Shown here: positions 2,571 to 4,945 of the stretch, piece by piece
How the letters are laid out: each line of letters starts with the position of its first letter
How positions within the stretch are numbered: position 1 is the stretch's first letter
IMG/VR virus record: IMGVR_UViG_2531839006_000011
Coordinates: 1 to 13,089 of that record
DNA: 13,089 bases
From: a virus
Lineage: Duplodnaviria > Heunggongvirae > Uroviricota > Caudoviricetes
Strand: one strand, 5' to 3'
Position numbers and translations under genes: made by a program
The notes under the pieces: model-generated
The model's input: the letters and a program-made list of their open reading frames with translations, nothing else
Told to the model about the DNA's origin: nothing
The model's database searches: none

Positions 2571-3065
2571 ATGAATAACAGCAGCAATACCACAACCCGT
2601 AATACGCTTTCACCCGTTGAGTCAGCCTGTCATGCCTTACTGGATTTTATTGCCCGGGAAGTTTTTGAGAATAAAGCACCGGAAGAGGACGTCAGGGAAC
2701 GTTGCAAAGTATTTACAGCGCTGCTTAACGAAGGATTTAAAGCCCTGCTTGATGAGGCAGGGCTGAATCTGTCAAACCTTCGTAAACAGTGTGAGGAACT
2801 GGAATCTCAGATAACCAGACTTGATTCTCAGTCCGATGCTATTTGTCGCAGAGGTGCTCAAATTGAACGCTTCATTGGTCACCATTTACCTTTTTTCGAT
2901 TTGAACAAAGTTTTTGATACTGCCAGTCAGTCATGTGAACCAGCGCCTTCTCCGGCTCAGTCGGCTGTGTCCAGTAGTCAGCCCAGTAATCTGTCAGAGC
3001 AAGGGACATCTCAGCGGGTGTCATCTGTTCAACCGTTGCAGGGAGCCAGTGATGTTGATGAATAA
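2571..3065 (+). CDS. Hypothetical protein (164 aa), coiled-coil-like N-terminal part with Ser/Pro/Gln-rich tail
   Basis: ATG at 2571 with AAGGA about 9 nt upstream; the N-terminal 100 aa look protein-like. The C-terminal 60 aa are low-complexity and overlap a minus-strand ORF with better codon usage, so the 3' extent is uncertain. Confidence 0.5.
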   Translation: MNNSSNTTTRNTLSPVESACHALLDFIAREVFENKAPEEDVRERCKVFTALLNEGFKALLDEAGLNLSNLRKQCEELESQITRLDSQSDAICRRGAQIERFIGHHLPFFDLNKVFDTASQSCEPAPSPAQSAVSSSQPSNLSEQGTSQRVSSVQPLQGASDVDE

Positions 3066-3285
3066 GAGCAAACTTAACGGCTTGTTGAACGCTGATACTG
3101 TTATCGTCCAGAAAAAACCAGCGGCGGCTGTTAATCAGCCAGTGTCCGAGCCAGCAAAGTCGGTAAGCGAGCTTCCGGTCAGCTCCGGGAAAGATTTCTG
3201 TTCCCTGGTCAAAGAAGGTTTTGCACCGTTCCACATCGTCGGTGCTCATACCTCCGACTTTCCAGTTTTCATAATATTTTGCCAT
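2872..3285 (-). CDS. Hypothetical protein (about 137 aa from the ATG at 3285; the open frame continues upstream to 3423), antisense to the parA operon
   Basis: Minus-strand ATG (reverse complement of 3283-3285) preceded by GAGGA with 7-nt spacing. Over 2941-3060 this frame uses mostly common codons (ctg, ccg, gcg, gag, aag) and gives a globular-looking sequence (MAKYYENWKVGG...LALTDYWADYWTQPTEPEKAL). Competes with plus-strand frames 2571-3065 and 3052-3564. Confidence 0.4.
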   Translation of the reverse strand: MAKYYENWKVGGMSTDDVERCKTFFDQGTEIFPGADRKLAYRLCWLGHWLINSRRWFFLDDNSISVQQAVKFALIHQHHWLPATVEQMTPAEMSLALTDYWADYWTQPTEPEKALVHMTDWQYQKLCSNRKKVNGDQ

Positions 3286-3556
3286 GTTGCCATCCTCATC
3301 ATGGTTGTTATCAATGCCGGACGGCAGTTGCTGATGATTTGTGTTCATAAGGTATTTCTCTTCGTAAACATGTTGATTATGAGCGCAAATATGCTGTACG
3401 TACCTTCTGACCGGGGTCGGCAAACTTACCGGTCGGAAAATGTACAGAAAGTTATGGGCCTTTTATGCCCTGCAACTGTTCGTCCGGCACCCGTTTTCGT
3501 TTTTTTGCATGGTGGGTTTGCTGTGAAACAGGCTCCGTTTGCCCGGGAGGTGGCGT

Positions 3557-4945
3557 ATGTCTGAACGCTATATTCCACGCTCCGTTGATGCAGAGCAGGC
3601 CGTGCTGGGCGGCCTGATGCTCGATAATGAACGCTGGGATGAGGTGGTACTGATGCTCCGGGGGGAGGATTTTTCTCTGGCCGCACACCGGGTGATATTC
3701 CGCACCATGTCAGAGCTGGCAACCAGCGGTCAGCCGTTCGACCTCATCACGCTGAGTGAGCATATTGAGAAAACAAACAATATTGAGGCACTGGGTGGTT
3801 TCGCTTATCTGGCTGAACTCAGCAAAAATACGCCTTCTGCAGCCAATATTATCGCTTATGCCCGTATTGTTGCTGAAAAGAGCATGCTGCGTCAGTTGCA
3901 GGAGACGGGGAATGCGCTGATTACGGATGTGGCCGCACCGGATGCGACACCACGCACTGTTCTTGAATCCGCTGAACGTCGGCTCTTTTCACTTTCACAG
4001 ACTGGCATGTTGCATGAGCGATGTGAAGTCAGTCTCACCTCGGCTATGGAGCTGGCGCTGCGTCAACTGGAAGAGGGACTGAACGCCGGCGGGATGACGG
4101 GCACGCCCACGGGATTTGATGAACTGGATGAGATGACCTGTGGTCTGCAGCCCGGCGACCTCATTCTTCTGGCTGCACGCCCGTCTATGGGGAAAACAGC
4201 GCTGGGCCTTACCTTCTGTCTTAATGCCCTGTGTAACCGGACCGATGAAACGGTATTTCTTTTCAGTATCGAAATGTCCCGGGAGCAGCTGATTCTGCGT
4301 GTCCTGTCAATGCTCTCCAGGGTGGAGCTGACACGTCTTCGCAGCAGCATGATGGATGATGAAGAGTGGGCGAGAGTCACGGCAACCATGGGACGCTTCA
4401 TGAATGAAGCGTCATTCATCGGAGATGGAAACCGCCTGATAATTGATGACACCTCCTTCCAGACGCCGTCATCGCTGCGTGCCAGCGCCCGTCGTTATGT
4501 CCGTCTGTATGGCAGACCTTCCCTGATAATGGTTGATTACCTCCAGCTGATTCGTTCTCCGGACCAGGAGAACCGAACGCAGGAAATTGCGGAAATATCC
4601 CGCGCGCTTAAGGCGTTAGGTAAAGAGCTGGGATGCCCGGTACTGGCACTGTCTCAGCTTAACCGTCAGGTGGAGCAGCGGGCGGATAAACGCCCCAATA
4701 ACGGTGACCTGCGTGATTCCGGGGCGCTGGAGCAGGATGCTGACCTCATTATGTTTATTTACCGTGACGAGGTTTATAACTCCGGCACGCTGGATAAGGG
4801 CGTTGCTGAAATCATTGTGAGCAAACAGCGGCAGGGACCAACCGGAACGATACGGGTGAACTTCGACGGCCGCTACACCCTGTTTTCACCGTTTGAACGT
4901 GGATGGAATTTTGACCGTGCCGGAGGAAATGCGTATGTCAATTAA
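3557..4945 (+). CDS. DnaB-family replicative DNA helicase (462 aa)
   Basis: N-terminal DnaB-like domain (SERYIPRSVDAEQAVLGGLMLDNERWDEV), Walker A LLAARPSMGKTALGLTF, Walker B-like LIMVDYLQLI, and C-terminal RQGPTG. Start placed at the ATG at 3557 (GGGAGG upstream), not the track's 3539. Confidence 0.9.
   Translation: MSERYIPRSVDAEQAVLGGLMLDNERWDEVVLMLRGEDFSLAAHRVIFRTMSELATSGQPFDLITLSEHIEKTNNIEALGGFAYLAELSKNTPSAANIIAYARIVAEKSMLRQLQETGNALITDVAAPDATPRTVLESAERRLFSLSQTGMLHERCEVSLTSAMELALRQLEEGLNAGGMTGTPTGFDELDEMTCGLQPGDLILLAARPSMGKTALGLTFCLNALCNRTDETVFLFSIEMSREQLILRVLSMLSRVELTRLRSSMMDDEEWARVTATMGRFMNEASFIGDGNRLIIDDTSFQTPSSLRASARRYVRLYGRPSLIMVDYLQLIRSPDQENRTQEIAEISRALKALGKELGCPVLALSQLNRQVEQRADKRPNNGDLRDSGALEQDADLIMFIYRDEVYNSGTLDKGVAEIIVSKQRQGPTGTIRVNFDGRYTLFSPFERGWNFDRAGGNAYVN

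Follow-up and report, generated by a model that had tools for sequence, protein, structure and literature searches.

A conserved antisense gene, a plus-strand frame kept open across it and a structured RNA between parA and dnaB of SPI-7-type integrative elements

Introduction

An open reading frame (ORF) that lies antisense to a gene may be a shadow ORF, which is open as often as the codon usage of the sense gene allows, and the codon-aligned antisense frame is the classic register for such ORFs. Opposed overlapping units are also known from the convergent or antisense transcription switches of mobile elements, such as prgQ/prgX of pCF10 and FinP/traJ of F. Antisense overlapping genes (OLGs) have been described in E. 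coli O157:H7 (e.g., ano and the three OLGs of EDL933), where they are mostly young and taxonomically restricted, and are supported by RNA-seq and Ribo-seq (PMC5960689, PMC9927249). In the integrative conjugative element (ICE) ICEclc, the gene for Shi (258 bp), which must be translated, shares 17 bp with parA and 8 bp with parB; Shi acts together with ParA to arrest growth, and the authors of that study reported a shi homologue to be absent from Salmonella pathogenicity island 7 (SPI-7) (PMC6812849). The Frpo/ssi single-strand promoters, in turn, are repeated in one orientation before the leading-region genes of plasmids (PMC11541004). The present work concerns a stretch of 13,089 nucleotides (positions 1 to 13,089 of the IMG/VR virus record IMGVR_UViG_2531839006_000011, filed under Caudoviricetes), which is referred to here as the window, and within it three long overlapping ORFs situated between parA and dnaB: ORF1 on the plus strand (2571-3065, 164 aa), an ORF on the minus strand (2872-3423, counted from a TTG) and ORF3 on the plus strand (3052-3564). 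The reading that we favour, with a probability of about 0.6, is that an antisense, regulator-like gene is embedded in coupled bridge ORFs whose translation would be obligatory, and that together with a folded RNA these form a three-layer overlap in the core of SPI-7-type ICEs.

As the Prokaryotic Genome Annotation Pipeline (PGAP) names, on identical DNA, a ParA family protein, a "dnaB-PI: SPI-7-type island replicative DNA helicase" and a ParB family protein, this locus is the core maintenance module (parA-dnaB-parB) of an SPI-7-type ICE. In related loci that are without ORF1, a single plus-strand ORF of 170-250 codons, which we will refer to as X, extends from the parA stop to the next gene across the whole of the minus gene, with which it is codon-aligned; ORF3 is the local form of X. 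For the slot that follows parA, Shi of ICEclc is the nearest functional analogue. Like shi, X is a small ORF directly after an island parA, which it overlaps, it overlaps the next gene by 8 bp, and it belongs to a related ICE family; however, its greater length, the lack of a conserved peptide, the presence of a whole gene on the opposite strand and dnaB as the next gene set it apart, and the two are likened by position and not by sequence. With the OLGs of O157:H7 the locus shares long opposite-strand ORFs, one embedded in the other, of which the pipelines keep one. Unlike in those cases, the evidence here is comparative, with both frames open across about nine genera or lineages, and it is the embedded antisense protein that is conserved, whereas the plus ORF keeps only its frame and coupling signals. 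ORF3 has the register of a shadow ORF and a peptide conserved no more than the real gene imposes, but it differs from shadow ORFs in the absence of closing codons (0/345 vs. ~15%), in its open non-coding flanks and in its ribosome-binding sites and coupling overlaps. The prgQ/prgX and FinP/traJ systems resemble the locus in having opposed overlapping units, with a structured RNA complementary to the initiation region of a regulator-like gene of a conjugative element. Here, in contrast, the overlap spans a whole gene and is read as translated on both strands, and the likeness is one of architecture, drawn from the genes alone. Lastly, Frpo/ssi and the RNA element of this locus are both structured repeats of ~200 nt, in one orientation, just upstream of several genes near one end of a conjugative element, but the latter forms a four-way junction with many G-U pairs, favouring RNA, and the two are likened by description.

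The Minus-Strand Gene

The low coordinates of the minus ORF and of ORF3 are both equal to 1 mod 3, i.e., the two are codon-aligned antisense, and in the register of ORF1 its second codon positions lie opposite third positions on the minus ORF. The coding hypotheses can therefore be told apart cleanly by counting substitutions according to coordinate mod 3. Such counts were obtained from alignments of the window with three related loci, L003 (91% DNA identity), L006 (76%) and L007 (69%), and later with ten loci. In the overlap of ORF1 and the minus ORF (2872-3065), which measures 194 bp and was put at about 190 bp in the original prediction that drew attention to these three competing ORFs, all of which are present, the substitutions were distributed as 9/20/5 (L006), 1/9/2 (L003) and 18/30/17 (L007). 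For the part of the minus gene beyond the overlap the corresponding counts were 6/14/8, 1/6/3 and 21/34/23. In each of these comparisons the peak coincides with the third positions of the minus gene, and these positions were also highest when the counts were pooled from 2875 (10/32/10 in the overlap and 8/19/12 beyond it, or 25/46/28 with L007 included). Because the substitutions peak at minus third positions, the region from 2872 to ~3250 appears to evolve as a minus-strand gene. Distant homologues agree with this, with nucleotide identities of 0.57, 0.61 and 0.41 at codon positions 1, 2 and 3, irrespective of the frame used for the alignment, and an amino acid identity of 0.40 vs. 0.30 in the plus (antisense) frame.

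The minus ORF, most likely extending from 3348 to 2872 (158 aa), is in our assessment a real gene, encoding a small, Trp-rich, all-helical protein of an unnamed family. It contains in-frame ATG codons at 3348, 3285 and 3252. The start at 3285, which had originally been proposed, does have a GAGGA ribosome-binding site 8 nt upstream, and the 137-aa protein that it would give contains 8 Trp (5.8%), in accordance with the Trp-rich character ascribed to it. However, ATG 3285 is confined to the clade of the window and is less conserved than ATG 3348, the family-conserved start, the N-terminus of the family being MNTNxQLPSGID; ATG 3285 is then an alternative internal start. The other motifs of the family are YRLxWLGxWL, EMSLALTDYW and, often, LDxLDDPF, and the Trp, Gly and Leu positions within the motifs are invariant. 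An exhaustive profile search of 1.84 billion representatives recovered only 20 proteins of this family, mostly of 130-160 aa. Two C-terminal types are seen in the family, one ending in LDxLD(D/x)PF (P0062, P0065, P0067, P0068, P0074, P0076 and the L016 paralogue) and the other, that of the window, in MTDWQYQKLC.

Searches of Pfam, NCBIfam, PHROG, PADLOC and (by sequence) PDB with all three translations gave matches at noise level only, 72,556 plasmids contained no tblastn match to either the minus protein or the N-terminal part of ORF1, and a scan of genome contigs for the minus family with a profile of the close alignment found nothing. Homologues in related islands were found for the minus protein and for ORF1, and the peptide of X was not conserved. 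Support from homologues is not confined to the plus frames, as the minus family is conserved and the codon pattern is of the minus type. An AlphaFold2 model from an alignment of 13 sequences consists of eight helices, with a predicted local distance difference test score (pLDDT) of 75.5 (80-97 in the core) and a disordered N-terminus; an earlier model from 4 sequences, with a pLDDT of 59, had been judged too poor to use. Foldseek detected no significant match for the model, the best E-values being 1.4 (PDB) and 0.08 (BFVD).

In every locus that was fetched with its flanks the minus gene is antisense to parA/dnaB. These loci come from E. coli, Mixta, three Pectobacterium, Brenneria, Proteus mirabilis, Providencia, Buttiauxella, CP007044 and several metagenomic contigs, and the family spans about nine enterobacterial genera or lineages in SPI-7-type islands. 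Eight genome loci, as well as L026, L027, L032 and L033, have the gene between parA and dnaB, the sole exception being L034, where it lies between dnaB and parB. An antisense-oriented gene within the ParA-DnaB-ParB module is thus genuine, as originally predicted, judged by its coding-type substitutions and conserved family; it is, however, not an unusual or inserted gene, as was then thought, but a syntenic, conserved part of the module across genera, and it is ORF1 that is the lineage-restricted addition. A second, paralogous minus gene is found in a neighbouring cassette of some E. coli-type islands. In the metagenomic island L034 (1-3492) the unit of ORF1, minus gene and X stands between dnaB and parB with its internal junctions unchanged, and this placement suggests that the unit moves as a module.

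The annotation of this DNA is inconsistent. Chromosomal DNA that matches the window at 100% identity is present in E. coli AR_0089 and in about 30 further E. coli genomes, most of which come from avian or extraintestinal isolates, and at least part of the window is matched in 69 of 5,426 complete genomes. In most of the identical genomes PGAP calls two plus-strand hypothetical proteins (2571-3065 and 3052-3564), in some it calls the minus protein 2872-3348 alone (WP_001354423, WP_071889143), and the plus pair and the minus ORF are never annotated together by NCBI on identical DNA.

Plus-Strand Frame and its Missing Stop Codons

ORF3 (3052-3564, plus strand) runs codon-aligned antisense to the minus gene and then through the RNA element into the start of dnaB; its frame is already open from 2905, with a TTG at 2914. 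In tests on the single sequence of the window, this frame stayed open in 16-27% of synonymous resamples of the minus protein, and that of the ORF1 tail in ~20%. The openness of these antisense frames is within chance for one sequence, but it is far beyond chance across lineages. A TTA, CTA or TCA codon of the minus gene is read as a stop codon in X. In seven distant minus genes TTA and CTA together account for 0/98 Leu codons, vs. 16% in parA and dnaB of the same loci (Fisher p=1.4e-7), and TCA for 0/71 Ser codons vs. 14% (Fisher p=8e-5), whereas other A-ending codons are used normally, the depletion being limited to these three codons. For individual loci no antisense-stop codon was observed where 3.4-6.3 were expected [P(0) = 0.002-0.035]. 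Five lineages that were fetched after the hypothesis had been formed (L026, L027, L029, L032 and L033) contained 0/127 such codons, and overall, where X alone covers the minus gene, they make up 0/345 Leu/Ser codons, compared to ~15% in the neighbouring genes. X is additionally open over 27-78 codons on each side outside of the minus-gene coding region.

The four lineages that possess ORF1 provide an internal comparison. Under the ORF1 tail 6 of 36 Leu/Ser codons are antisense-stop codons, which is the background rate, vs. 0 of 49 under X alone (P~0.006). The constraint on the X frame thus seems to be lifted exactly where the frame of ORF1 takes over, which argues that the selected trait is continuous plus-strand translation, the ORF1 tail being translated though its sequence is dictated by the minus gene.

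The peptide of X is a different matter from its frame. Its amino acid identity (0.30) and BLOSUM score (0.99) are at the level imposed by the minus gene. A functional X peptide would be expected to add conservation at the synonymous sites of the minus gene; these were found to be conserved no more strongly than those of the parA/dnaB controls, and the N-termini of X are unrelated among loci. Because of these last two observations, it is probably the frame and not the peptide that is selected, and X would be an ORF with conserved frame and coupling signals and a peptide that is not conserved. X is open more than codon usage predicts for a shadow ORF, and the overlapping pair shows signs of selection on both members, on sequence in the minus gene and on frame and junctions in the plus ORFs. 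The region 3052-3564 had at first been regarded as a mere divergent promoter region for the helicase gene; instead it contains a frame-conserved ORF, with a Shine-Dalgarno sequence and stop/start overlaps at both ends, and a structured RNA in its 3' half. The treatment of ORF3 as a plain shadow ORF and of 3300-3540 as a non-coding promoter repeat was dropped after the analyses of codon-specific depletion and of the junctions.

Junctions of the Plus-Strand Chain

The first gene of the chain is parA (1604-2482, plus strand), the 3' end of which carries an internal GGGGGA Shine-Dalgarno sequence before a GTG at 2479, where a GTGA overlap is formed with the TGA stop of parA. This GTG opens a mini-ORF (2479-2553, plus strand) of 24 codons, encoding VIQVKREPCSSVTLAYGRYQYRTI up to its stop, which bridges the parA stop to the ribosome-binding site of ORF1. 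The same GTGATTCAGGT start also opens the long X in the ORF1-less relatives L003, L004 and L005. At the start of ORF3, GGGAG is found 8 nt before ATG 3052, and ATG 3058 overlaps the TAA of ORF1 (3063-3065); at its end the TGA (3562-3564) overlaps the dnaB ATG at 3557 (8-nt overlap), dnaB-PI (3557-4945, plus strand), the island helicase gene, being the next link in the chain.

In the relatives, X starts with a GGGGAGG or GGAGG ribosome-binding site and an ATG that overlaps the parA stop, and it stops 5 nt past the ATG of the next gene, itself preceded by GGAGG. The combination of an overlap with the parA stop and an 8-bp overlap with the next start was observed for X in L019, L022, L023, L025, L033 and L003, and in the window the mini-ORF and ORF3 jointly fill this role. 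Nearly all junctions follow the pattern GGAGG-N5-8-ATG with the upstream stop 1-17 nt later, mostly as 8-nt overlaps, and in the window the ORF1/ORF3 and ORF3/dnaB junctions are among those that do so. The dnaB/parB and parB/DUF2786 junctions are alike in type, with 11-nt and 8-nt overlaps after GGAGG, and at 4935-4945, 6577-6584 and 7305-7308 (dnaB/parB, parB/DUF2786 and DUF2786/next gene) GGAGG is followed by an ATG overlapping the upstream stop. Judged by its junctions, the plus-strand cluster seems in its entirety to form a single long chain linked by translational coupling.

Lineage-Specific ORF1

ORF1 (2571-3065, plus strand) is a lineage-specific gene whose tail (2872-3065) lies antisense across the 3' third of the minus gene. 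A convincing N-terminal half and a Ser/Pro/Gln-rich tail had been noted for it, and this composition is seen. Its substitutions at codon positions 1/2/3 are 31/22/53 in 2610-2871, compared to 10/32/10 in the overlap. Because the changes in 2610-2871 peak at its own third positions, the N-terminal ~100 residues of ORF1 appear to be a real coding region under coding selection. The tail, on the other hand, seems to evolve as the antisense of the minus gene, without protein-level selection of its own. Homologues of ORF1 are present in L006 (57% identity), L007 (31%) and L034 (33%), with AAGGA or AAGGAG ribosome-binding sites and the position of the stop retained. It is absent from the remaining genera, and L003, Proteus and other loci have the minus gene without ORF1.

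Structured RNA Element

A block from ~3300 to 3520 is conserved at ~80% identity, and it includes a 176-nt element (3315-3490, plus strand) that folds on the plus strand with a z-score of -4.76. The predicted structure is a four-way junction closed by the helix P1 (3315-3331/3472-3489). Its other helices are H2 (3342-3348/3379-3385), which contains the start codon of the minus gene (CAT, 3346-3348), H3 and H4 (3393-3416/3425-3452), with the conserved loop GGTCGSCAAACT, and H5 (3457-3459/3467-3469). In 23 copies from 6 genera, 98.1% of the cells at 46 consensus pairs are paired, and compensatory double changes occur in 13 pairs, vs. 5.3+/-1.4 in shuffles (0/500) and 1-4 in slid controls. The paired cells include 116 G-U on the plus strand but only 3 on the minus strand, so that the element most likely folds as an RNA in the sense of the operon. 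A covariance model found copies in loci outside of the training set at 104-165 bits, constant in place and orientation, and only one copy in the window. Rfam gave no match at E<=1 over the whole window, and for 3250-3600 only noise (11-15 bits vs. gathering scores of 42-75).

The initiation region of the minus gene (ribosome-binding site and start codon) is covered by the element, whose P1 has a 5' arm antisense to the conserved QLPSGID codons and whose end lies ~65 nt before dnaB. After P1 there follow a U-rich tract (GTTTTCGTTTTTTT), a linker and the dnaB Shine-Dalgarno sequence (3493-3556, plus strand; GGGAGG at 3545-3550). In the E. coli and Buttiauxella copies P1 (16 bp) is followed by CCC and U4-7; Pectobacterium and Mixta have a weak U-tract and Proteus has none. 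In a promoter and terminator scan of 2400-3700 the yield was no higher than in shuffles, with a single weak site on the minus strand, within ORF1, and no terminator, the scan being blind to multi-branch terminators. For the loop GGTCGSCAAACT no second identical or complementary site was found in the window outside the element itself.

Related islands carry the element as two or three direct repeats, each of which precedes a plus-strand gene, and these repeats delimit variable cassettes. In the parA-dnaB gaps of L003, L005, L006, L011, L013-L017 and L026, copies of ~200 nt bound interchangeable cassettes comprising a 300-aa gene, a 241-aa gene, a D12-type methyltransferase, an 86-aa CxxC protein or the pair of ORF1 and minus gene. 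The gap behaves like a cassette array in which the RNA element is the repeated boundary. In L018 (Mixta mediterraneensis), an insertion of ~0.8 kb between the minus gene and dnaB, with ORFs that are transposase-like by reading only, splits the element, its left arm lying beside the minus gene and its right part ~0.8 kb downstream.

Discussion

In the arrangement that we favour, the first layer would be the minus gene (3348 to 2872), encoding a small helical protein and facing away from dnaB; by its position the protein is likely to be a regulator. The second layer would be an unbroken coupled plus-strand chain (parA, mini-ORF, ORF1, ORF3 or X, and dnaB) that is kept open across the antisense gene. 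Because only the reading frame is conserved and not the peptide, we infer that the selected property is translation itself, i.e., that ribosomes must pass from parA to dnaB. Translation across the gap could prevent Rho-type polarity on what would otherwise be a stretch of ~1 kb without translation, it could prevent the operon mRNA from pairing with the antisense mRNA, and it could open the structured RNA just upstream of dnaB. The third layer would be the 176-nt operon-sense folded RNA over the start region of the minus gene. Expression of the operon (sense) and of the minus gene (antisense) would then antagonize each other, giving a switch-like control of the replication and partition genes. 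A more elaborate form of this arrangement is put forward only tentatively: ribosome traffic from parA to X would open the RNA, drive expression of the helicase and ParB and silence the antisense gene, while the antisense gene or its protein would block this traffic, and the switch unit would also be a movable cassette, since it is flanked by copies of the RNA element. The proposed unit is duplicated in some islands and is located between dnaB and parB in one.

A number of observations weigh against the three-layer arrangement. A simple promoter scan found no sigma-70-like promoter for the minus gene. In L016 the minus gene (as stored, ~3001-3366 on the plus strand) has a premature stop (W122*, 121 aa) with both overlapping plus ORFs intact, which may reflect either an error in sequencing or a decaying antisense gene beside retained plus frames. 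The chain is not perfectly tiled, as a 17-nt gap separates the stop of the mini-ORF from ATG 2571, and in L032 a gap of at least ~124 nt follows parA. The depletion statistics are without phylogenetic correction and the lineages are only partly independent, and for the ORF1 tail by itself an open frame is only weakly beyond chance (chance probabilities of 0.21, 0.36 and 0.49 in individual lineages). Further, the very stable fold (-91 kcal/mol) inside ORF3 is odd for a translated region, and, given its U-tract, the RNA element may rather act as a terminator or attenuator, or form the 3' end of a separate RNA.

Other explanations of the locus need to be weighed against these data. The choice made by PGAP in most of the identical genomes, by which the two plus ORFs (2571-3065 and 3052-3564) would be the only genes and the minus ORF a shadow of them, fits the coupling pattern of the operon, but it is extremely improbable. 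The conservation of the ORF3 frame is the reverse of that of a coding frame, its position 1 being the least conserved (0.41) and position 3 more so (0.53), the minus family has invariant Trp/Gly/Leu motifs and a confident predicted fold, and the minus gene is kept without ORF1 in L003, Proteus and other loci; a real plus frame with a minus-strand shadow was rejected by the codon-position identities. If, conversely, the minus ORF and the N-terminal part of ORF1 were the sole genes here, both ORF3 and the tail of ORF1 would be untranslated shadows, and 3349-3556 would be a non-coding divergent control region and 5' leader containing the RNA. Codon-aligned antisense is indeed the classic shadow frame, the openness of ORF3 is unremarkable in the window alone (16-27% of resamples), the X peptide is not conserved, and a strong RNA structure with a U-tract lies inside ORF3. 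We nevertheless regard this explanation as unlikely, in view of the absence of antisense-stop codons (0/345 vs. a background of ~15%) with a depletion restricted to those three codons, the openness of X through 27-78 codons per side beyond minus coding, the Shine-Dalgarno sites and stop/start overlaps conserved at both of its ends, and a constraint on its frame that ends precisely at the part taken over by ORF1.

The frame conservation and coupling of X would equally be expected if X or ORF3, and perhaps the ORF1 tail, encoded a functional protein, and a candidate for this is a positional counterpart of Shi, since X occupies the same post-parA slot as the translated shi of ICEclc (PMC6812849). 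The C-terminal part of X over the RNA (PSDRGRQTYRSENVQTV...VRPAPF) is also conserved across genera, with slightly more change at the third positions of X (32/21/20). However, this conservation is accounted for by the RNA covariation, the identity (0.30) and BLOSUM score (0.99) of X are those that the minus gene imposes, the synonymous sites are like those of the controls, the N-termini are unrelated, and a different frame replaces part of X in the ORF1 lineages; the ICEclc study, too, reports no shi homologue in SPI-7 (PMC6812849). True dual coding is accordingly judged to be improbable. With regard to the element, it could be a separate antisense RNA or a single-strand DNA signal. An action as single-stranded DNA or as a recombination site, either as an ssi/Frpo-like signal that precedes early genes on the transferred strand or as a homology block for swaps of parA-dnaB cassettes, is consistent with its two to three direct copies just upstream of plus genes, bounding variable cassettes, with the repetition of Frpo elements in one orientation before leading-region genes (PMC11541004) and with a single-stranded DNA fold z-score of -3.4. 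Against it, G-U makes up 11% of the paired plus-strand cells (116, compared to 3 on the opposite strand), a proportion typical of RNA, and the covariation preserves pairing and not a promoter sequence. In addition, a hairpin stem that rebuilds -35 (TTGACA) and -10 (TATAAT) hexamers, as in Frpo, was found at no site in 3300-3560 on either strand by a simple scan, which is not a full test. Such a DNA-level role is very unlikely in our view.

Returning to the three-layer arrangement, this locus is among the clearest purely comparative cases known to us of a long (~430-480 nt) bacterial antisense overlap in which both strands are open over deep divergence. It represents a distinct mode of overlap, marked by conservation of the frame but not of the peptide, and it bears on the dispute over the reality of embedded antisense ORFs. 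Because annotation flips between two mutually exclusive models on identical DNA, a conserved core gene is missing from most records, and the affected island family, which includes SPI-7, ICEPm1-like and HAI2-like elements, is medically important. A structured RNA with strong covariation and a small protein family, both of them new, are found at the control point of the replication and partition genes, and they offer handles on the decision of these islands between quiescence and activation. The proposed role of translation against polarity or pairing is directly testable by means of stop codons that are silent in the minus gene.

Neighbouring Features of the Window

The co-directional ParA/DnaB/ParB cluster, as in SPI-7-type ICE modules, adjoins a tRNA-Phe fragment (1461-1538, minus strand). 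This remnant consists of the 3' ~52 nt of E. coli tRNA-Phe (anticodon arm with GAA, T-arm and ACCA) and unrelated 5' sequence. It is labelled by PGAP as a 78-nt "tRNA-Ser", and ARAGORN and Rfam called nothing at 1461-1538 or elsewhere in the window; it is instead an attachment-site remnant, separating a P4-type integrase island (1-1263) from the SPI-7-type element. A hairpin followed by a T-run is located beside it at ~1424-1451 on the minus strand. Further downstream, the first ~47 residues of the ORFs 9837-10235 and 10668-11081 (plus strand) are near-identical (MxTITKERLLTIxQWRETYGPGSNVVLPAEEAEELARI...) and the remainder is divergent, and by appearance this pair is a local duplication with differing C-terminal parts.

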